A program made the position numbers and the translations under genes. A DNA stretch of 64,000 nucleotides from Acidobacteriota bacterium (lineage in GTDB: Bacteria > Acidobacteriota > Thermoanaerobaculia > Gp7-AA8), in the NCBI GenBank assembly GCA_021325515.1, contig JAJPHC010000051.1, forward strand, positions 27,998-91,997, in the 5' to 3' direction. The notes below the pieces were generated by a model. The model saw only the letters and a list, made by a program, of their open reading frames with translations. It ran no database searches and was not told the origin of the DNA. Shown here piece by piece: positions 2,972-31,831 of the stretch. Each line of letters begins with the position of its first letter. The stretch's first letter is position 1.

Positions 2972-5027
<2,056 letters not shown>

Positions 5028-21250: not shown

Positions 21251-21925
21251 CTACGGCCCGACTGCGGTAATCGCTTCTTCCAGAAACTTCCGCACGCTGC
21301 CGCGGGAAGAGACGAGCAGCACGGCGCCGAACCATCCCTGCGTGTTCCAGAATCCCGACGACAGCGACTTCGCGATCGTCGGCCCTTCTGCGAACACGGG
21401 GGGCGTCACATACCAGTAAGGCTCGGGATACTGCGCATCACCGGCGAGAAAACCGACGCCTGTCGTCAGCCCATCGCCGTTGTCGATGCGCACCGCGATG
21501 TCGAAATGATGCGGCCAGCAGCGCGGCTTGCCGAACCGCTGCAGCTCCTGGTTAGCCGCGTGATAGAGGTCGGAGATCTCCTGCTGATCGCCGAAGTCGG
21601 GCGCGAACGGCTCGCCATGCGCCACCGGATGATCCGGCAGGGAGCCCTCCGCGGGGCGCTCCAGTTTCTGTCCGACCTTCGACTCGAAGAAGTGAAACGC
21701 ATCCTCGAGGCTCCGTCCGGCCAGAGGAAACTCATCGTCGCCGTACAGCAGCGTCAGATCGTGAAAGCGGATGCCCGCGCGGTCGTCGCCCTGAATCAGA
21801 GCCGTGCGCTCCGGCGACCAGTAGAAACTCGTGTGCGAGTCGTCGGCCTGCTTCGGCAGAGTCGTGCGGCCGACGCCGGCGGCAGCCTGCGCCGCCCAGT
21901 GCAGTTGAAGTCGTGTATCGATCAT
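21251..21925 (-). CDS. hypothetical protein
   Basis: Start taken at the internal ATG (MIDTRLQLHWAAQ...), 225 aa; coding-like codon bias; no recognised motif. The upstream extension is probably artefact. Confidence 0.4.
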   Translation of the reverse strand: MIDTRLQLHWAAQAAAGVGRTTLPKQADDSHTSFYWSPERTALIQGDDRAGIRFHDLTLLYGDDEFPLAGRSLEDAFHFFESKVGQKLERPAEGSLPDHPVAHGEPFAPDFGDQQEISDLYHAANQELQRFGKPRCWPHHFDIAVRIDNGDGLTTGVGFLAGDAQYPEPYWYVTPPVFAEGPTIAKSLSSGFWNTQGWFGAVLLVSSRGSVRKFLEEAITAVGP

Positions 21926-22029
21926 GATGCTGTGCTGCCAAATATACGCGCGATTCGACAACGCTGCGGCAACATTGCAGAATGCATCAACACCGACAAC
22001 TCGACGGAATGGAATGGAGGTTCTGGCCA

Positions 22030-22526
22030 TGACGACGACACGTGTCTGTTTCGCGATCCTCACCGCCTTCGCCCTCGCCTCTCCGATCGCCTTTGGGCAA
22101 CCCTCTCCCGAACAGAAGAAGCTCGAGTCGATGACCGGCAAGTGGCAGACCGAGATTGAATTCAAGGGCACGACGCCGGGCAAGGCATCCGGCACCGAAG
22201 AGTGCGAGTGGTTCGCCAATCTTCACATCGTCTGCCACGCCGATCTCACCGGCGCCGCAGGCCTCTATCGCGCGATGCGCACCGTGAGCTGGGTGCCGGC
22301 GATGAAGCAGTACGCCGTCTATACGATCGACAGCATCGGCTATGCAGCGCTGACGATGGGAACCAGCAGCGGCAACACGTGGACGTTTACTTCCGCGGGG
22401 CCGGGTTGGAAGACACGCCTGACCATGAAGATCTCCGCGAACGAGATCACATCCACTTCCGAGTACGCCGGCGCGGACGGCAAGTGGATCACGACCGCGA
22501 GCTCGAGGTCGAAACGGTTGAAGTAG
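22030..22526 (+). CDS. DUF1579 family secreted protein
   Basis: GGAGG 9 nt before ATG 22030; signal peptide MTTTRVCFAILTAFALASPIAFG; ...MTGKWQTEIEFKG... is a DUF1579-like lipocalin-type pattern. Confidence 0.55.
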
Positions 22527-22584
22527 TAGAGGGGCGTTGGGGGCCTGCGTTAAATCCGGCGAGAGCCATCGCTACCGCGAGCTG

Positions 22585-23630
22585 TCACCGTCCCCAGATC
22601 TGCGCGAGGCGCGCGTCGCGGCCGCAACCGTGCCGGTAGTACTTGTACCGGATCGGATTCTTGATGTGGTACTGCTGGTGGTACTCCTCGGCCGGATAGA
22701 AGCGGCTGGCGGCGATGATGTCGGTCACCACGCGCTGCTTCGGAAAGCGCTTCTGCACCGCATCGCGCGATGCGATCGCCGCGCGATGCTGCTCCTCGCC
22801 GTGATAGTAGATCGCGCCCTTGTACTGCTCTCCCTTGTCGCAAAACTGTCCGTACTGATCGAACGGGTCGACGTTGTGCCAGAAGATGTCGAGCAGCTTC
22901 TCGTACGACACCTTCGCCGGATCGAACGTCACCTGCACCGCCTCGCGATGTCCTGTGCCGCCCGACGAGACCTGTTCGTACGACGGATCGTTCACATTGC
23001 CGCCCGTGTAGCCGGAAAGCACACCGATCACTCCCGGCACCGAATCGAACGCCGCCTCCGAGCACCAGAAGCAGCCGGCGGCGAACGTCGCTACCGCGCG
23101 TGGCGGAGGAGCCGCGTGCAGCGGGAGAGAAACGAAGAGAATCGCCAGCATTGCTGCAGCGGCGAGTTGGGGTGCCACCGCCGGTTTGAACTTCTTCCGG
23201 AGCAGCGCATCCAGCGAGAAGAGACCGGGGCCGAACGCCAGGACGATCAGCGCCACCATGAGATAGGGGAACGCCGCATCTCCCGTGAAGCCGTCGATCG
23301 ATCCCCAGTCCTTCTTATCGCCGCTGACGATCGCCACGAACATGTTCACCGCCAGCGGGATGGAGATCAGACGCGAGGCGAGCCCGATGAACAGCAGCAC
23401 GCCGCTGACCAGTTCCAATCCGCCGACGAAGCGCGCCGTCAATTCCGGCATCGGGATCTGGCGCGTCGCGAAGAACTTCGCCACGTTGTCCAGGTTGTGC
23501 AGCTTGCCCCAACCGTTCGTTGCCAGCTCGTATCCGAACAACAGCCGGATCACGAGGAGCAGCGGGTCGCGGAGACGATCGAGCACCTTCGTCGTCCCCC
23601 AGTCATAGAGAGCCTGTAGTCGCGTCACTC
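22585..23630 (-). CDS. msrA: DoxX-family membrane domain fused to peptide methionine sulfoxide reductase MsrA
   Basis: GTG start (rc of 23628-23630) 7 nt after GGAGG, overlapping the upstream gene stop. N-terminal about 150 aa is DoxX-like with four TM segments (..LLFGYELATNGWGKL..), followed by an extra hydrophobic segment. The MsrA domain has AGCFWCSEAAF.. active site and no intervening stop. Confidence 0.75.
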
Positions 23631-24323
23631 GATTCCTCCGAAGATCCCCGCCGCGCTCCAGTCGCGGAACCAGGCGAACAACTCTTCCTGAGTGGCGCCG
23701 GTGGACTCGATCGCTTCGACCAGCGTCGCTCCATCGCAAAGCGCGGAGAGGAATTCGTAAGCCCTCTCATCCAGCGTGAAGCGATAGACCGAGTAATCGC
23801 GGCGATGGAACACGACGAACGTCTTCTTCGGCTCCGGCTCGACCAGCTCTTCCTCATCGCGAAACTTCTGAAAGAAATCGGCGACCGGGTAGTCGAACGC
23901 CATCAGGCGAAACGCCGCGATCATCTTCAGACGCGAATCAGGACCGACGGCGGCGATCGCCTCGGGGCCCAGCGCAGGTGTCTCTTCTTCGTCGAACACC
24001 TGCGTCATCGCGAGCTCGAAGCGGGCAAGGTCGGAGAGGAACGGATCGTCCTTCAGAAACTCAGAAAACGAGTCGCCGAGCCGGTTCAGCGTGTAGCTCC
24101 GCGACGGATGGACTTCGGAATAGCGAGTGACGAGATCGTGGAACTTCTCTTCCCCGAGGAATTGCGCGATCGCCGGATAATCGACGGCCATCGCGTCGTA
24201 CATGCGGATCGGATACATGTCGCGATAGATCGCGATCCGCTCCGGATCGACGAGCCGCGACGTATCTTCCGGCCAGTGCGGCGACGTGATGGCGTCGTAC
24301 ATCCACTCCTGAAACTCACGCAC
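23625..24323 (-). CDS. DUF2063 domain protein (MNIO partner protein, MbnC/BufC-like)
   Basis: DUF2063 blocks ..[28 protein letters not shown]...[14 protein letters not shown]. Start is either GTG 24321-24323 (overlaps the DUF692 stop by 8 nt) or ATG 24300-24302. Confidence 0.75.
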
Positions 24324-25140
24324 AGACGGCCTCCAGATATCCGGCGGCCTTTTTCGCCTCGGCGTGCACGGTCTCGAAGTCGGGGATCTCCTGATCCCAC
24401 TCGACCATCGTCGACACATCGCCGAATCGCCGGCACGTGTAGTCGTACAGCGACCACACCTCGTCGATGACGTGCCCCATGTGCGTGTCGATGATGTGCG
24501 TGTCGTACTTCGTGTGGCCGGCGAGATGGATCTGCACCACGCGGCCCTTCGGGATGTTGTCGATGTACGTCTTCGGATCGAAGCCGTGGTTGAAGGCGCT
24601 GACGTAAACGTTGTTGACGTCGAGGAGCAGGTAGCAGTCCGAGCGCTCGGTGAGCTGCGCGAGAAAGTCCCACTCCGTCATCGTCGACTCTTTGAACGCC
24701 ACATAGGTCGACGGGTTCTCGAGCACGAGCGGCCGCTCCAGGAAGTCGCTGACGACACGCACGCGCTCGGCGATGTGCTCGAGTGCGCGCTCGTGTGTCG
24801 GCACCGGGAGAAGATCGTGCGTGTTCTTTCCCATCACCCCTGTCCAGCAGAGATGGTCCGAGACCCAGCGTGCATTCACGCGCTTCGCGAGCTTCTTCAA
24901 CTTGCGGAGGTAGTTCATGTCGAGCGGATCGGTTCCGCCGATGGACATCGAGACGCCGTGCAGGACGACCGGATAGCGCTCGGCAATCTTGTCGAGCACG
25001 TACGCCGGACGGCCGCCGCTGTCCATGTGATTTTCAGAGAGCGCTTCGAACCAGTCGATCTCCGGCTCCTGTCCGAGGATGTGGGAGAAGTGGACGGTGC
25101 GAAGGCCGATGCCGATGCCTAGATAGGGGAACTCGGTCAT
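24316..25140 (-). CDS. DUF692 / UPF0276 family protein (MNIO, multinuclear non-heme iron oxidase, MbnB-like)
   Basis: ATG (rc 25138-25140). [45 protein letters not shown] and HLAGH are the hallmark DUF692 TIM-barrel blocks. Confidence 0.85.
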
Positions 25141-25205
25141 TTGCGTAGTTGGATGCCGAATGCTGGCTGCCGGTTTCCGGCAGCCAGCAACAGGCGCATG
25201 ACTGA

Positions 25206-25583
25206 TTACGAAGCCTTCGGAGGAACGGCGCAGCCGCCCTTGCCCTTGCACTCGTTCTTGCCATCCGGGCCCTGGCCCTTGCAGGCGTTCTTACCCTTGC
25301 AGTCGTGCTTGACGTCGGACGAGGCGCAGCCGCCCTTGCCCTTGCAGGAGTTCTTGCCGGCGCAGCCCTTGTCGCCGCTCTTGCAGTTGCCTTTGCCCTT
25401 ACAACCGTTCATGCCTTTACAGGCATGCTTGTCGGCCGCCTTGTCAGCCTTCTTGCTGTCGGCCACCTGGACCTTGCCATTGTCGCTGAGCGAGAACGTA
25501 TTGGCGCGGGCCTGGGTACCAACGGTCAAACCTGCAACGACACCACCGAGAACGAGAACCTTTGCGAGATCACGTGAATTCAT
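25206..25583 (-). CDS. secreted Cys/Lys/Gly-rich small protein, candidate RiPP precursor (bufferin-like)
   Basis: AGGAGGG 6 nt before the ATG. Sec signal [27 protein letters not shown]. Mature part has 10 Cys in spaced C-x5-7-C pairs ([36 protein letters not shown]) in a K/G-rich background. First gene of the MNIO operon. Confidence 0.65.
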
Positions 25584-25760
25584 GGGAGTAACTCCCTCCT
25601 TTCAATCGACAAACTACGTGTGGAACTTCACGTCGGACTCATGCACTTCTCACTTTTCTGTCACGCGGGCGGGGGTCGTGAAGCAGACACAGTGGATGCC
25701 TCCTCTTGCCGTGGGACCGAGCTCCGATTGTTGATGGAGACGGAATGTTACGCCGCTAGC

Positions 25761-25780
25761 CGTCACATCGCAATGTGACG
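25761..25780. promoter_or_regulatory. perfect palindrome CGTCACAT-cgca-ATGTGACG upstream of the MNIO operon (candidate operator)
   Basis: 8-bp arms with 4-nt spacer, about 180 bp upstream of the precursor start codon, in the 300-bp intergenic region. Confidence 0.3.
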
Positions 25781-25790
25781 TTGACCCACC

Positions 25791-25847
25791 AACGTCCTCC
25801 CTCGCCCCCCAACGTCCTCCCTCGCCCCCCATCGTCTCCCTCGCCGC
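25791..25847. repeat. imperfect 20-bp tandem direct repeat x about 2.8 (AACGTCCTCCCTCGCCCCCC)
   Basis: aacgtcctccctcgcccccc / aacgtcctccctcgcccccc / atcgtctccctcgccgc. It sits between the histidine-kinase stop and the MNIO operon promoter region. Confidence 0.6.
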
Positions 25848-25886
25848 AAAGCGGGGATAGGGGCCAGGGGTGAGGGGCAAACCGTC

Positions 25887-27278
25887 CTACACGGCGAAGC
25901 TGAACGTCGTTCCGGCGTTCTTCCTGCTCTGCGCGACCAGCGACGCTCCGTGCAACTCCAGAATCCTCTTCGCGATCGCCAGTCCGAGGCCGGCGCCGCC
26001 GCGCGGCGTCGACTCCTCCCCCTGCCAGAATCGGTCGAAGATATAAGGCAGGCTCTCCTCGGAAATGCCGCACCCGGTGTCGGTGACCCGCACCGATAGT
26101 TTCTCCTGCTGTGGCATCAGCGACACCGTGACGCTTCCCCCTTCGGGGGTATAGCGGATCGCGTTCTCGATCAGATTCTCGAGCACGCGCTCCATCAGTG
26201 CGATGTCGCCTTTCACCAGCGGCAACGCCGGCTCGAGCTGCGCCGTCACAGACACCCTCGCCTGTTCCGCGCGCAACTGAAACTTCTGCACGACGTCCTG
26301 CACCAGCTCGGCCATCGAGAACGGCTCGATCTGGAGCGGCGTCATCTTCGAATCGAGCTTCGCCAGTTCGAACAGCTCATCGACGAGTTTTCCGAGCCGC
26401 TCGCTGTGCTTGCTCGCGATCTCGAGGAAGCGCCGCTGCTCGTCGGGAGTGAGCTGCCCCTCCTTTAATAACAGGGTCTGGATGTAGCCCTGCAGCGACG
26501 CGAGCGGCGTGCGGAGATCGTGCGATACGTTCGCGACGAGCTCGCGCCTGTGCAGATCGACTTCCTTGAGCATCTGCACCTGCCGCTCGAATGCGTGCGC
26601 GAGGCGATCGACTTCATCGCCCGAGCCATTCACCGGAAGCCGCACCTCCCCGCTCGACTCCACGGCACTCGCGAGATTGCGCAGCCTTCGCGTCATCGCG
26701 CCGAAGAGCACGAGCCCCGCGGCGAGCGCAAAGAGCAGCGCGGCGATCGCGAGCATCACGCTCTGCTGAAGAATCCAGCTATTGCGGATGTGCGCCATCG
26801 CCGAGTCCTGCTGCTCGCCGCCGAGGATGACGTAGAGGTAGCCGTCGTCGACCTGCGCCACGGAAAAGATCTTTCGCCGCGAAAGATCGCGCGGATCGTC
26901 TCCGTGAATCGGCAGACGATCGCCGCGCATGAACGCTTCGATCGGCACCAGCGAAACGCTCTTGCGCTTCACTTTTCCCGGAGGCGCGGAAAACGCCCGG
27001 ATGGCTCCCCTCGCATCGAGCAGATAGATCTCGATCGACGGATTGACGGCCATCAGCGCGTCGAAGACGTTATCGAGCATCTTCCAGTCGATCGTGCCGT
27101 CGTGAATGACAGGCTTCTGCCGCACGATCGTCGCAGCAAGCCCGCGATTCAACCGCTGCGTTGCCTCTTCGTCATACAAGCGCGACGTATGAATCGTCAG
27201 CGCGACATCGACCGCTGCCGCGATCAGAAAGAGTCCGAGGAGGACGACGGCGAGCTTGGCGTAGAGAGACTTCTTCAT
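25887..27278 (-). CDS. sensor histidine kinase (TM-HAMP-HisKA-HATPase)
   Basis: Start MKKSLYAKLAVVLLGLFLI (rc ATG 27276-27278). H-box VSHDLRTPL; N-box NLIENAIRYT; G-boxes DTGCGI and GGAGLGLAIA. Confidence 0.8.
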   Translation of the reverse strand: MKKSLYAKLAVVLLGLFLIAAAVDVALTIHTSRLYDEEATQRLNRGLAATIVRQKPVIHDGTIDWKMLDNVFDALMAVNPSIEIYLLDARGAIRAFSAPPGKVKRKSVSLVPIEAFMRGDRLPIHGDDPRDLSRRKIFSVAQVDDGYLYVILGGEQQDSAMAHIRNSWILQQSVMLAIAALLFALAAGLVLFGAMTRRLRNLASAVESSGEVRLPVNGSGDEVDRLAHAFERQVQMLKEVDLHRRELVANVSHDLRTPLASLQGYIQTLLLKEGQLTPDEQRRFLEIASKHSERLGKLVDELFELAKLDSKMTPLQIEPFSMAELVQDVVQKFQLRAEQARVSVTAQLEPALPLVKGDIALMERVLENLIENAIRYTPEGGSVTVSLMPQQEKLSVRVTDTGCGISEESLPYIFDRFWQGEESTPRGGAGLGLAIAKRILELHGASLVAQSRKNAGTTFSFAV

Positions 27279-27293
27279 AGGGAAAAGAAGCGA

Positions 27294-27363
27294 AACGCAG
27301 AACGCAGAACGCAGAATGAAGAATTGAGAAGAGCGCATCGCTTGAAGTCGGTTTTCATTCTGC
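27294..27363. repeat. degenerate tandem heptamers (ACGCAGA)x3-(ATGAAGA)... plus 11-bp inverted repeat CGCAGAATGAA / TTCATTCTGCG
   Basis: Fills the short intergenic gap between the response-regulator stop (27355-27357, inside the inverted repeat) and the kinase start. Same heptad flavour as the hairpins at 1678 and 57017. Confidence 0.6.
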
Positions 27364-28071
27364 GGCCATTGCCTCTGTGAACTTGTAGCCCACTCCCCAC
27401 ACGGTGAGGATCCACTTCGGATCGGACTGATCTTCTTCGATCTTCGAGCGCAGCCGGTTGATGTGCGAGTTCACGGTGTGCTCGTAGCCGTCGTGGCCAT
27501 AGCCCCAGACGGAATCGAGGAGTTGCGCACGCGTGTAGACGCGGCCGGGATTGCGCGCGAACTGCAGCAGGAGATCGAACTCCTTCGCCGTGAGCTCCAC
27601 TTCCTCGCCGCGCAGCGTCACCTTCCTCTTCTCGACTTCGATGAGGAGATCGCCATATTGCAGCCGCGACGCCGGCGCTTCTTCCTCCGGCTTCGCACTC
27701 AAGGCATCGACGCGCCGCAGGAGCGCCTTCACGCGCGCGATCAGTTCGCGGATGTTGAAGGGCTTCGTCAGATAGTCATCGGCCCCTAGCTCGAGACCGA
27801 CGATGCGATCGACATCCGCCGAGCGCGCGGTGAGCATGAGGATCGGCGTGTAATTCGTCCGCGCGCGGAGCCTGCGGCAGATCTCGAGCCCATCGATGCC
27901 CGGCAGCATCAGATCGAGAATGATGAGATCGAACGGCTTCTTCGCCGCCAGCTCCAGCGCCACGTTGCCATGGTGTGCGAGCGTCACCTCGGCACCGAGA
28001 TCCTTGAGATGCATCTCGACGAGCTGGGCAATATCACGGTCATCTTCGACTACAAGGATGCGGCGAGCCAT
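27355..28071 (-). CDS. OmpR-family response regulator (REC + winged-helix)
   Basis: MARRILVVEDDRDIAQLV.. receiver domain, D54 context ILDLMLPGIDG, C-terminal winged helix LTAKEFDLLLQFARNPGRVYTR. Confidence 0.85.
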   Translation of the reverse strand: MARRILVVEDDRDIAQLVEMHLKDLGAEVTLAHHGNVALELAAKKPFDLIILDLMLPGIDGLEICRRLRARTNYTPILMLTARSADVDRIVGLELGADDYLTKPFNIRELIARVKALLRRVDALSAKPEEEAPASRLQYGDLLIEVEKRKVTLRGEEVELTAKEFDLLLQFARNPGRVYTRAQLLDSVWGYGHDGYEHTVNSHINRLRSKIEEDQSDPKWILTVWGVGYKFTEAMAAE

Positions 28072-28163
28072 GCGAACATTCTGATGCCGGCGGACTGGAA
28101 ATGGTTTCGCCCGATTCCACCGCGCGCCCGCGAACCCGCGAGCCCGCGTAACCAGGAGGTCTC

Positions 28164-29138
28164 ATGCACCATCGCAAACTCGGCCAGCTCGAAGTCTCCG
28201 CCATCGGTCTCGGCTGCATGGGGATGTCGGAGTTCTACGGGACTCACAACGATGCGCAGTCGCTCGACACCATTCATCGCGCGCTCGATCTCGGCGTGAA
28301 CTTTCTCGACACGGCAGACATGTACGGGCCGTTCACGAACGAGAAGCTGGTGGGCCGCGCGATCAAAGGGCGCCGCGACTCCGTGATCCTTGCGACGAAG
28401 TTCGGCAACGAGCGGAGGGCGGACGGATCGTGGGTCGGCATCAACGGCCGGCCGGAGTACGTCCGCGCCGCGTGCGATGCCTCGCTGCTGCGGCTCGGCG
28501 TCGATCACATCGATCTCTACTATCAACATCGCGTCGATCCGAAGACGCCGATCGAAGAAACGGCCGGCGCGATGTCCGAGCTCGTTCGCGCGGGCAAGGT
28601 GCGATTCCTCGGTCTCTCCGAGGCGGCACCGAAGACGATCCGCCGCGCGCATGCGATTCATCCCATCACTGCGCTGCAGACTGAATATTCACTCTGGAGC
28701 CGCGAGCCGGAGGATGAGATTCTTCCGACGGTGCGCGAGCTCGGCATCGGGTTCGTCGCCTACAGTCCGATCGGCCGCGGATTTCTCTCCGGCCGCATCA
28801 AGAGCGTCGACGATCTCGAGCCGGATGACTATCGCCGCAACAACCCGCGATTCCAGGGAGAGAACTTCCAGAAGAATCTCGATCTCGTGAAGAAGATCGA
28901 ACAACTCGCGAAGAAGCGCGGCGTCACGCCCGCACAACTCGCGATCGCGTGGGTGCTGTCGCGCGGCGAAGACATCGTCCCGATTCCCGGCAGCCGCCGC
29001 ATCCCGCATCTCGAGGAGAACATCGCGGCGGTGAACATCACATTGACGCGCGAAGAGCTGAGGCAGATCGACGACGCGGCGCCCGCCGGCGCGGCGGTGG
29101 GAGATCGCTACCCCGACATGTCGCGCGTGAATCTCTAA
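28164..29138 (+). CDS. aldo/keto reductase family oxidoreductase
   Basis: 324 aa. [22 protein letters not shown] and KVRFLGLSE are canonical AKR motifs. Confidence 0.85.
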
Positions 29139-31831
29139 CGCGCAATCGGCTCTTCGAACGCGATCGGCGACGGCCGGTGCGTCTGCGCACTTTCTGCGAA
29201 GGCCTGCCGCATCTTCTCGTATTGCGGCAGCCAGAGATCACCGGCGCGCTTCGCCTGCTCCATGTGCGCCAGCGCCTCGGGGTACTGCTGTTCTGCGTAT
29301 AGCAATCGCGCACGGATGATCTCCGTGCGCGGCGCCTTCCGCAGCGCATCGGCCTGATCGAGCAGACGCTTTGCCTCCTGCAGCCTTCCGGCGCGAATCA
29401 TCGGGTAGGCAGCCCCGGCATAAACATCGGGGCCGAGATCGGGAACGTGAATCCTCCGGTCGATCGCGAGCGCCGCTTCCGCATTGTTCAGCGCTGCATC
29501 GAGCTCTCCGCGCCGCGCCCGCGCCTGCGCGAGATCGGAAAGGATCAGCTCCTCGATCGTCGTACCCTGATACGACCGAGCCTGGGCAAGCGCCTGCTCA
29601 AGCAGTGCGATCGCGCGCACTTCGTCGTTTCGTGCGTAGGCCCAGATCCCCTGCATCAGGATCGCCTGCGTCTCGGTGCCCTTGTCACCCACTTCGTGTG
29701 CAAGCTGTGCAGCCTGATTCGACATCTCCTCGGCGCGCGCCAGCTCTCCCTCGGCAGCATAGATCTGCGCCAGGTTTCCCATCACGATGCCGCTCGTCTC
29801 GCGATACCCGAGCTGCTTTCCGAGCTGCAGCGATTCTTCGAACCACTTCCTCGCGGCCTTGTTGTCATTGCGCCGCATCGCATTCGTCCCGAGGTTGTTG
29901 AGAGCTGCAATCTTGATATAGGGAACGTTCCGCTCCCGCGCGAGCCGCAAGGCCTTCAGTTCGGCAGCGTCGGCTTCGTCCAGGCGGTTCATCGACCGGA
30001 GAAAGACTCCGCGTGCGTTCAGCGCATAGACTTCGATCTCCACTCTTCCGAGCTGCTGCGCGAGCTTCAACGCTTCCTGCGTCGCGCTGTCTGCCACAGC
30101 GACATCGCCCCGAAGCTGGCGCGCGAATCCGTGATTGATCAGCGCCGACACCAGCACGCTCTTGTCGCCCCGCCGGCGGGCCTCGCGGATGACTTCTTCC
30201 ATCGCCGCATCCGCCTCCGCGGCTCGCCCTTGTCTGGCGTAGAGCTCAGCCAGCGCCTGCTTCGCATCCAGGAATTCCGGATCGCGATCAGCCGCAACCG
30301 CGAAGTACTTCTCCGCAAACTTGCCGCCGCGAGTGATCTCGACCTCGCGCCCGATGTCGAACGCCAGCGCAGCAAACGCGTCGCTCGTCCCGCGTCCAAC
30401 GCGCCGGACGAAATGGCGTGGATCGGCGCGCTTCGCGAGCTGATCGGCCATCTTGTTCGCCGCTTCGGTGAGAATCGTGGAACCGGCTTCCTGCGGCCGC
30501 TCCGTGTGACGCGCGTCGGAGATTGTGTAAGTGATGACGTATCGATCGTCGCGAAATGACACCGAGGAATCGACGATGGCGTCCGCGCCAACCGCTTCCA
30601 GCAGCCGCTTGCGATCGTCCGCGGTCTTCGGTCCGAACTTCGTCACCGCTTCCGGCGCTACGACATCGAGACTGGGCACCCGGTGGAGCGAGCGAATGAC
30701 GTGATCCATGAGACCGAGCTCGATCCATTTCATCCCCCGATCGCCGGTCGCGTTGCGGAAAGGAAGAATGATGATGCGGGGATTCGCTTTCCAGCCGATC
30801 AACTGCGAGCGCTCGCGAATGCGTTCCGCGAGAAAGATGCCGGCGACGGCGAACAGCGCGAGCGCGGCCGCCGATGCGATCCAGCGCAGTACCCTCCAGC
30901 GCCGCGCCGGCCGCTCCGCGATGCGGGCAAGAACATCGCCCACTTCACCGACCGAGGGGCGTTCCGACGGCGCGAGCGATGTCATTCGGCTAACCAGACG
31001 CTGCACCTCGCCGTCGCCGAGGTCCAGCGGCACCACTTGTGCGGCTCTCACCTTCTGCAGCAGCTCGGCGACCGATTCCACCTCGCCATAGGCCGGCGCG
31101 CCGCCGGACAGCATCTCCTGCAGCATCACGCCGAGGGAGTAGACGTCGCTCGCCGGCGTGAGCGGCAGGCCGCGAGCCTGCTCCGGCGACATGTAGTGCA
31201 GCGTTCCGACGAGGCTTCCAACGGACGTCTTGCTGTCGTCCGGCGCGGTCGATTCGACGCCGATGATCAGCGTCTTCTCCAGATCGATCGCCGCTGCCTC
31301 CACCATCGCGGGATCGGCGTATTCCGCCTCCACTGCGCGCGCCAGTCCGAAGTCCAGCACCTTCACATCGCCGGAGGAGGTCAGCATCACGTTCTCCGGC
31401 TTGAGGTCGCGATGAATGATGCCGCGGCCGTGCGCGACCGCCAGCACGCGCGCGATCTGCAGCGCGATCTCGACCGCCTCCTGCTTCGAAAGCCCGCTCT
31501 CGATCCGCTCGCGCAGCGTTGGTCCATCGATCAGCTCGAGGACCAGCCAGTCGCCGTCGACCAGCTCGAGGACGTCCCAGATGCGGCAGATGTTCGGGTG
31601 ATCGAGCTTCGACAGCACGCGCGCTTCGCGAAGAAACCGCGTGCGGAGCTGAGGATTCAGCCGGCGCTCGGTCGTAATCGACTTCAACGCGACCGCGCGC
31701 TCGAGCTTTTCGTCCCAACCGCGGTAGACCTCTCCCATCCCGCCCGCGCCGAGGAGAGCATCGACGCGGATGCGGCCGACGTAGGAGCCGGCGGGCAGAG
31801 GCATGGAAATAAGGTAACAGACGGCAGGCAC
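29135..31831 (-). CDS. Ser/Thr protein kinase with TM segment and large C-terminal TPR-repeat domain
   Basis: [24 protein letters not shown] and SPEQ kinase subdomains, then a hydrophobic segment and many TPR-like helical repeats (AxxxxxxAxxLxP.. periodicity). Start could be an internal Met. Confidence 0.75.

Follow-up and report, generated by a model that had tools for sequence, protein, structure and literature searches.

What is encoded by a short, cysteine-rich open reading frame (ORF) in the genome of an uncultured Thermoanaerobaculia-like acidobacterium, and what do the genes beside it say about its product? The ORF lies on the minus strand at 25206..25583 of a 64,000-nucleotide (nt) stretch of DNA (contig JAJPHC010000051.1; hereafter the window), the sequence of which also occurs, without differences, within a 263-kb metagenome contig, ENA ERZ27279688. 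It runs from an ATG to a TAA and specifies a peptide of 125 amino acids (aa). Our analysis indicates that this peptide is very probably the precursor (BufA) of a BufA2-type bufferin, or Cys-Lys captophorin, that is, of a ribosomally made peptide that is modified in the cytoplasm and exported to act as a periplasmic copper chelator. Bufferins and captophorins now count as the largest group of peptides made by MNIO enzymes, and nearly all experiments on them come from Pseudomonadota. The family itself is known, and its basic picture is unchanged by this locus. What is new here is a 6+4 layout of the Cys, a two-component system of the operon's own with a candidate operator, and a fusion of DoxX to the methionine sulfoxide reductase MsrA.

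The peptide has a sole family match, the NCBIfam model BufA2 (NF050166), which it hits over two stretches (E value 4.8e-11, 42.7 bits); no Pfam model matched the precursor at E≤0.01. The next gene, which starts 65 nt downstream on the same strand (24316..25140, 274 aa), encodes a BufB-type MNIO (DUF692) maturase. Its product scores 368.9 bits on NF050167 (MNIO_BufB), above the equivalog cut-off of 310, and matches the Pfam family MbnB_TglH_ChrH (E 4e-109) and the DUF692 structure PDB 3BWW (E 6e-49). The MNIO stop is overlapped by 8 nt by the gene of a DUF2063 partner of BufC/PME1 type (23625..24323, minus strand, 232 aa), which reaches 67.7 bits on the N-terminal Pfam domain DUF2063 (cut-off 27.2) and 60 bits on NCBIfam HvfC, below the cut-off of 142; no match to this protein was found among PDB sequences. 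In Buf2 systems, partners of this kind also have a C-terminal RRE-like domain. The DUF2063 stop is in turn overlapped by 4 nt by the gene of the DoxX::MsrA fusion (22585..23628, minus strand, 347 aa). Precursor, MNIO, DUF2063 and DoxX form the published core bufferin cluster (PMC11626156, PMC12452194). We retrieved 93 related loci across Acidobacteriota, Planctomycetota and Gammaproteobacteria, and the gene order precursor-MNIO-DUF2063 is kept in most of them. An initial annotation, made from the sequence alone, had proposed a substrate whose Cys are enzymatically converted, for instance to thiooxazoles, to yield a metal-binding peptide of the periplasm, and the BufA2 match, the BufB score of the next gene and this synteny all support an MNIO substrate. 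The same annotation held that the Cys arrangement was not a known pattern; it is in fact that of the Buf2 / Cys-Lys captophorin family (PMC11626156, PMC12452194, PMC13097082). Of the two families that it named for comparison, BUF_6/12Cys (NCBIfam BufA2) was matched below its cut-off, and DUF2282 was not matched in the Pfam scan, so that a DUF2282/BufA1 (PF10048) identity was rejected.

Multiple Cys-Lys motifs characterize the Cys-Lys captophorins (PMC13097082), and 7 of the 10 Cys are followed by Lys, six of them in C-K-G and one in C-K-S. The active-site motif of the MNIO reads E247-W-D249-Q250-E251, with the proposed catalytic Asp within E-W-D. In the MNIOs of relatives the residue after EWD is A, E, D, Q or G, usually followed by an acidic residue, and never Phe. 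A Phe after the catalytic Asp, the position it occupies in the ERDF motif of 3BWW, is typical of MNIOs acting on Lys-Cys repeats, and MNIOs of the Cys-Lys group have Asp, not Phe, at that site (PMC13097082), which in BufB2 is Asp251. The window enzyme appears to carry Gln there, with an acidic residue one position further on. The BufA2 / Cys-Lys group fits on both counts, the Cys-Lys motifs of the peptide and the constant absence of Phe from the enzyme. Two other candidates were rejected. One was an oxazolin of EGKCG type, as EGKCG is absent from the peptide and the MNIO, with 259 bits on HvfB, falls short of the cut-off of 360; the other was a methanobactin system, as the MNIO scores 39.1 bits on MbnB against a cut-off of 325 and the precursor is unrelated in form.

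That the ORF is a real gene follows from its homologues, its invariant Cys, a third-codon-position bias, its Shine-Dalgarno sequence and its conserved operon context. Among 5.8 billion proteins searched, 6,723 are homologues at E≤1e-3, and the best 120 of these are 50-100% identical to the peptide and of similar length; the named relatives belong to Thermoanaerobaculia and other Acidobacteriota metagenome-assembled genomes (MAGs). Compared with its counterpart in locus L002, the gene differs at 30, 24 and 53 first, second and third codon positions, respectively, and the third-position bias holds against four orthologous precursor genes. Upstream of the ATG we read a strong Shine-Dalgarno sequence, AAAGGAGGG (25594..25602, minus strand), with its GGAGG core ending 11 nt before the start codon and its GGAG invariant in 6 of 6 aligned upstream regions. 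The precursor is overlapped by ORFs on the opposite strand (25141-25734 and 25305-25577), which could speak for a spurious reading frame in GC-rich DNA, but the evidence just listed refutes that explanation, the probability of which we take to be practically nil.

A further explanation would be that the product is a secreted, metallothionein-like Cys-rich protein that stays unmodified, its adjacency to the MNIO being incidental. Thiolates alone are able to bind copper, and orphan members without an adjacent MNIO do exist (L091; PMC12452194). Yet the precursor is accompanied by MNIO and DUF2063 in different phyla, the spacers being short and the downstream genes overlapping, and free Cys arrays in an oxidizing periplasm would form disulfides. 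We hence consider a metallothionein-like protein highly improbable.

Several observations weigh against the assignment of the peptide as a copper-binding bufferin. Its BufA2 score of 42.7 bits is below the NCBI curated cut-off of 60 bits. On the same model, a twelve-Cys relative scores 51 bits, single-module forms 33.9-46.4 bits and an eight-Cys form 27.7 bits, and a planctomycete form with three modules exceeds the cut-off with 82.7 bits; since relatives from the same phyla also score below the cut-off, NF050166 appears to be tuned to other lineages. No other copper genes (copper efflux, oxidase) were found within ~6 kb, and the sensor kinase encoded upstream of the precursor reaches no metal-sensor cut-off. 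The sole Met of the peptide is variable among homologues (M, L or Q), so the bufferin is unlikely to be a dedicated substrate of the MsrA domain encoded in the operon. Finally, an AlphaFold2 model built on a 31-sequence alignment had a mean pLDDT of 44.6 and a pTM of 0.15; because this model is unusable, the disulfide pairing proposed below is drawn entirely from analogy.

How, then, are the ten Cys organized? They stand at residues 55, 61, 67, 74, 80, 86, 95, 101, 112 and 118, with spacings of 5, 5, 6, 5, 5, 8, 5, 10 and 5 residues. Buf2 precursors have 6 conserved Cys (90%) or 12, the twelve-Cys forms being duplicated domains (PMC12452194), whereas the window peptide has six in a first module and four in a second. 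Module 1 (residues 53-86; 25326..25427, minus strand) reads H-x-C-x5-C-x5-C-x6-C-x5-C-x5-C and is a full six-Cys BufA2 core. Its spacing is the same as in the single-module relatives L063, L079, L082 and L084 (5,5,6,5,5), the core of L079 is nearly identical to it, and it is here, over residues 38-84, that the NCBIfam BufA2 model matches best. Module 2 (residues 93-118; 25230..25307, minus strand) reads H-x-C-x5-C-x10-C-x5-C, that is, a BufA2 core without Cys III and IV. The five Cys pairs that the initial annotation described can all be found as motifs, but the pair does not stand as the repeat unit: each of the first three pairs is likewise separated from the next by 5 residues, which makes the division into pairs arbitrary and the first six Cys one continuous array. 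It had also suggested the expansion of a shorter ancestral core; the ten Cys derive not from a two-Cys unit but from the duplication of a six-Cys module, the second copy of which lacks two Cys.

Comparison of the best 120 homologues supports this view of the modules, as three spacing classes are found among them. The twelve-Cys class has the spacing 5,5,6,5,5 / 8 / 5,5,6,5,5. The ten-Cys class, to which the window peptide belongs, has 5,5,6,5,5 / 8 / 5,10,5 (64 sequences), and the eight-Cys class has 5,10,5 / 8 / 5,10,5 (28 sequences). In the alignment, the three forms differ by an exact 8-column gap that removes Cys III and IV together, turning KGQGG-C-KSGDAG-C-AGKNS into KGQG(P/A)(D/G)GKN(D/E). 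All three Cys states occur among sequences sharing the signal peptide MNS(R/K)DLAR, and every one of the more distant lineages shows the 12-Cys or the 6-Cys state, so that deletion is the parsimonious direction of change. The ten-Cys layout would hence go back to the tandem duplication of a six-Cys BufA2 module, after which the second copy underwent a net deletion of 8 residues. The same tandem duplication underlies the twelve-Cys Buf2 forms (~10% of Buf2; PMC12452194), and such forms are the closest sequence relatives of the window peptide (for example P0036, P0043 and P0116), which differs from them in that its second domain, by a net loss of 8 residues, has no Cys III and IV. The survey in PMC12452194 gives 6 or 12 Cys and makes no mention of ten- and eight-Cys forms; the 6+4-Cys bufferin precursor is an undescribed form. 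With its clean 8-residue indels, the natural 12-/10-/8-Cys series is a ready test of the Cys requirements and of the number of copper sites per module. Module number varies widely beyond this series, members with three or more modules carrying 16-21 Cys (L068, 7749-8360; L073, 7932-8570; L045; L057), and precursor genes occur as tandem pairs at L032, L041, L046, L050 and L069.

Is the shortened module still a substrate? Conservation of the Cys, which the initial annotation had named as a check, is borne out in the 31-sequence alignment, where eight Cys and both module-leading His are invariant. It could be proposed that module 1 alone is matured and that module 2 is a decaying copy, serving for disulfides or as a spacer or tail only. 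Of the four Cys modified in BufA2, module 2 indeed retains two, NCBIfam aligns best to module 1, and MNIO substrate specificity is set by local sequence (PMC13097082). Against this, ten-Cys and eight-Cys sequences all keep, without variation, the leading His of module 2, its CKG motifs and the four Cys left in it. Furthermore, the eight-Cys clade has an intact MNIO-DUF2063-DoxX operon even though each of its two modules has only four Cys. Maturation of module 1 alone is thus quite unlikely to our eyes, and we argue from these sequences that four-Cys modules are functional substrates and not debris.

The precursor begins with a signal peptide (residues 1-27; 25503..25583, minus strand) made of a basic n-region MNSRDLAK, a hydrophobic h-region of 14 residues and a c-region TQ-ARA, followed by NTF. 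The predicted ARA/NTF cleavage leaves a mature part of 98 aa that contains all ten Cys, as initially annotated. Its composition (21 Lys, 18 Gly, 10 Cys, two His, one Phe and no Trp or Tyr) agrees equally with the more than 20 Lys and the single aromatic residue that had been reported. The calculated monoisotopic mass of the mature peptide is 9728.58 Da and its isoelectric point is ~9.4. The features of the export signal, as read from the sequence, are conserved in homologues, and the signal is probably of Sec type. A twin-arginine (Tat) signal was considered for the window peptide and rejected, because its n-region has SR (SK in sister sequences) and not RR. The MNSRDLAK n-region is nevertheless similar to twin-arginine n-regions of relatives such as MNRRDFGK, with SR or SK in place of RR, and has the appearance of a decayed twin-arginine motif.

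Among the BufA2-type precursors of the retrieved loci, at least 35 of 95 open with a canonical twin-arginine start (MDRREFTK, MNRRDFGK, MKRRDFTK). They are found at L009, L010, L017, L025, L028, L031-L034, L036, L038-L041, L044-L046, L051 and L052, and also at L054, L058, L059, L062, L065, L067, L071, L074, L075, L079, L081, L085 and L086. This suggests Tat rather than Sec export for these relatives. Some other precursors of the family carry lipoboxes. Published bufferin accounts give export as Sec-dependent, and one of them raises premature Sec export as a problem; the words Tat and twin-arginine are absent from PMC11626156, PMC12452194, PMC13097082 and PMC8692599. The twin-arginine signals of relatives bear on how an unmodified precursor is kept from leaving the cytoplasm too early, and it is to this published question that export through Tat, once modification is complete, would speak.

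The chemistry expected for the window peptide can be drawn from characterized relatives. In Caulobacter vibrioides, copper induces Buf2, which confers protection against copper and accumulates in a form lacking the signal peptide; its Cys I and VI escape modification and are probably linked by a disulfide, and its four central Cys each lose 4 Da, a change assigned to thiooxazoles (PMC11626156). A 5-thiooxazole is supported as the common product of MNIO-DUF2063 pairs (PMC13097082). In the window, the BufB-type MNIO and its DUF2063 partner would bind the precursor and oxidize selected Cys to 5-thiooxazoles. If the pattern of C. vibrioides BufA2 is carried over, each module would be closed by a disulfide between its outermost Cys (C55-C86 and C95-C118), and the inner Cys would be those modified, namely C61, C67, C74 and C80 in module 1 and C101 and C112 in module 2. 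Six thiooxazoles and two disulfides predict a mass shift of -28.2 Da on the mature peptide. After cleavage behind ARA, the basic 98-aa peptide would remain in the periplasm and sequester Cu(I)/Cu(II).

Comparison with known systems places the peptide further. With C. vibrioides BufA2 (NF050166; PMC11626156) it shares a signal peptide, a six-Cys core with Cys-Lys-Gly motifs (module 1), and a BufB-type MNIO with DUF2063. It differs from it in having two modules, the second with four Cys, in its sub-threshold score on the hidden Markov model and in its acidobacterial host. The operons differ too, as the window operon has a DoxX, fused to MsrA, and an adjacent two-component system, whereas the C. 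vibrioides buf2 operon has no DoxX and SigF/NrsF lie at a distance. The Lys-Cys captophorins oxazolin (HvfA), fontiphorin and gonophorin (PMC13097082, PMC11252979) are likewise exported repeat peptides matured to 5-thiooxazoles by an MNIO and DUF2063/PME1, and share the association with copper and DoxX. In contrast to the window system, they have an EGKCG repeat with Lys before Cys, and in their MNIO the catalytic Asp is followed by Phe (ERDF in 3BWW, against EWDQE here). BufA1 (DUF2282, PF10048), made by the same enzyme set plus DoxX, follows a four-Cys logic of an outer disulfide and two inner thiooxazoles that module 2 may mimic, but differs from the window peptide in spacing and sequence. 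Methanobactin (MbnA/MbnBC) also has its Cys converted by an MNIO to a heterocycle and a sulfur ligand for copper; it differs in having a leader peptide instead of a signal peptide, an oxazolone-thioamide product, and a role as a secreted chalkophore for copper uptake.

What does the fused MsrA contribute? The fusion consists of a DoxX membrane domain, an extra fifth transmembrane (TM) helix and a complete MsrA domain with the active site GCFWC (Pfam DoxX, 61.5 bits; PMSR, 195.3 bits). A Lys/Arg-rich loop, RKKFKP, precedes the fifth helix, from which, by the positive-inside rule, we infer that the MsrA domain faces the periplasm. DoxX::MsrA sequences form ~40 clusters, all from metagenomes or Thermoanaerobaculia MAGs, and the next-best matches are stand-alone MsrA. 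The fusion is present in all four ten-Cys lineages with the operon and absent from eight-Cys loci, which have a plain DoxX, and from twelve-Cys loci; most of the twelve-Cys loci examined have no DoxX alongside, and MsrA is missing from all of them. DoxX is dispensable and unexplained in published bufferin work, and MsrA is not mentioned in the bufferin literature that we examined. The RpoE2 regulon of Haemophilus influenzae and the SigE regulon of Neisseria meningitidis nevertheless hold the same link (PMC7907618, PMC2893595), as these extracytoplasmic function (ECF) sigma factors co-regulate periplasmic msrAB with a DoxX-MNIO-DUF2063 cluster (PMC7907618). There the loci are separate, whereas in the window operon MsrA is physically fused to DoxX; the fusion hard-wires a link already known from regulation. 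It would place a methionine sulfoxide reductase at the periplasmic face and might so couple copper buffering to the repair of oxidized sulfur in the periplasm, which offers a testable hypothesis for the DoxX component.

The fusion also bears on the role of the peptide. With the same chemistry, the main role could be defence against a soft metal other than copper (Au, Hg, Ag), or against oxidative or chlorine stress. Consistent with this, DoxX::MsrA is fixed in the ten-Cys clade, the H. influenzae and N. meningitidis clusters belong to a sigma regulon of hypochlorous acid and oxidative stress (PMC7907618), MerC-Buf2 fusions and gold-induced clusters have been reported (PMC12452194), and the kinase has no specific copper-sensor signature. 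On the other hand, all characterized members (Buf1, Buf2, oxazolin and fontiphorin) bind copper or protect against it (PMC11626156, PMC13097082), and copper stress itself oxidizes the periplasm, so that an MsrA suits a copper role equally well. We regard a main role other than copper as unlikely, and retain copper chelation as the preferred function. A more speculative proposal, which we hold to be doubtful, is that the operon is a self-contained envelope-stress module under two-component control, in which DoxX would be a membrane electron conduit to a periplasm-facing reductase repairing either the Met sulfoxide of envelope proteins or the oxidized thiooxazole sulfur of the bufferin, and the four-Cys module would be a functional, minimized copper site rather than a decayed copy. 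If true, this proposal would assign a role to DoxX.

We then come to the control of the operon. Upstream of the precursor and on the same strand lie genes for an OmpR/PhoB-family response regulator (27355..28071; Pfam Response_reg and Trans_reg_C both pass, the best NCBIfam matches all being below their cut-offs) and a sensor histidine kinase (25887..27338). The kinase has two TM helices (residues 29-47 and 194-212) that flank a periplasmic loop of ~140 aa, followed by HAMP-HisKA-HATPase (Pfam). It matches the heavy-metal model TIGR01386 over its full length with 175.6 bits (cut-off 292.55); the label of heavy-metal sensor was rejected, as the match is sub-threshold and many unrelated kinase models score equally well or better. 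Kinase and regulator alike resemble heavy-metal two-component models weakly and below threshold. Each of the four ten-Cys lineages with the full operon has this regulator-kinase pair upstream of the precursor and in the same orientation, which makes the response regulator the candidate regulator of the operon. Published surveys report no sigma/anti-sigma genes beside Buf2 clusters.

A conserved promoter block of 38 nt, CGTGAcagaaaaGTGAGAAgtgcaTGAGTCCgaCGTGA (25628..25665, minus strand), lies 45-82 nt before the precursor ATG and aligns in L001, L002, L087 and L089. Its pattern, CGTGA-N7-GTGAGAA-N6-GARTCC-N2-CGTGA, contains four GTGA-like repeats ~11 bp apart. Sites of OmpR/PhoB type likewise have repeats at ~11 bp. 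The pattern has one match in the window, with 0 expected by chance, and among the 93 loci it is found in only 7, all of the type with ten Cys, two-component system and MsrA, always just upstream of the precursor; since it was derived from these same sequences, its absence elsewhere is the informative point. In L087/L088 a zeta-toxin / PhdYeFM antitoxin pair (3780-4762) stands between the two-component system and the precursor, and the block stays beside the precursor. From this synteny and motif we infer that the response regulator binds the 38-nt block, and the two-component system would so activate the promoter that carries the four repeats. The Buf2-type cluster would in this way have a dedicated regulator and operator, both as candidates. 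A candidate -10-like hexamer, TAGTTT (25611..25616, minus strand), follows, and its TAnnnT is kept in all four lineages in the alignment; a scan for consensus sigma-70 promoters found no full promoter.

The 65-nt spacer between precursor and MNIO genes holds a perfect 13-bp GC-rich hairpin (25161..25189, minus strand) with no U-tract after it. Its fold has a free energy of -37.9 kcal/mol (z = -3.97), and 0 of 200 shuffled sequences fold as well. The corresponding spacers of L002, L087, L089, L004, L092 and L007 also have strong hairpins, of unrelated sequence and without a U-tract, so that each of the precursor-MNIO spacers examined has a long, perfect and GC-rich hairpin; that of L007 is 184 nt long, with a very long hairpin and a fold of ~-127 kcal/mol for the whole spacer. 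A terminator scan gave terminator-like sites at background level and none at the hairpin. An Rfam scan of 22400-28300 gave no match at E≤1, so that hairpin and leader are not known RNA families. A role of the hairpin as a partial terminator that sets the ratio of precursor to enzyme transcripts, or in messenger RNA (mRNA) stability, is plausible; in the former case it would keep precursor mRNA in excess over enzyme mRNA.

Downstream of the fusion, a gene for a 224-aa, weakly DUF5996-like protein (21251..21925, minus strand) is a possible fifth member of the operon. In the window it is separated from DoxX::MsrA by a DUF1579 gene on the opposite strand (21924-22526, plus strand). Elsewhere, in L002/3 (47% identity; 9144-9884 in L002) and in L087/88 (58% identity; 8021-8692 in L087), the homologous gene overlaps the stop codon of DoxX::MsrA. 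Large Ser/Thr protein kinases with TPR repeats border the neighbourhood of the operon (29135-31831, minus strand, and the region left of 19510), and an aldo-keto reductase gene (28164-29138, plus strand) adjoins the response regulator, as it does in L087.

Two of the retrieved loci deserve separate mention. L066 (CAMAXZ010000004.1), a MAG labelled Klebsiella pneumoniae, has a 12/13-Cys precursor with no MNIO or DUF2063 match nearby, and its label or binning is doubtful. L006 carries two bufferin clusters a few kb apart on one Thermoanaerobaculia contig (2511-4532 and 6001-8202), one of them an MNIO-DUF2063-BufA1 (DUF2282) cluster and the other a cluster with a twelve-Cys BufA2. In the latter, the MNIO is called as 109 aa after a gap of 608 nt, probably through a frameshift or as a pseudogene, and a TonB-dependent receptor gene follows.

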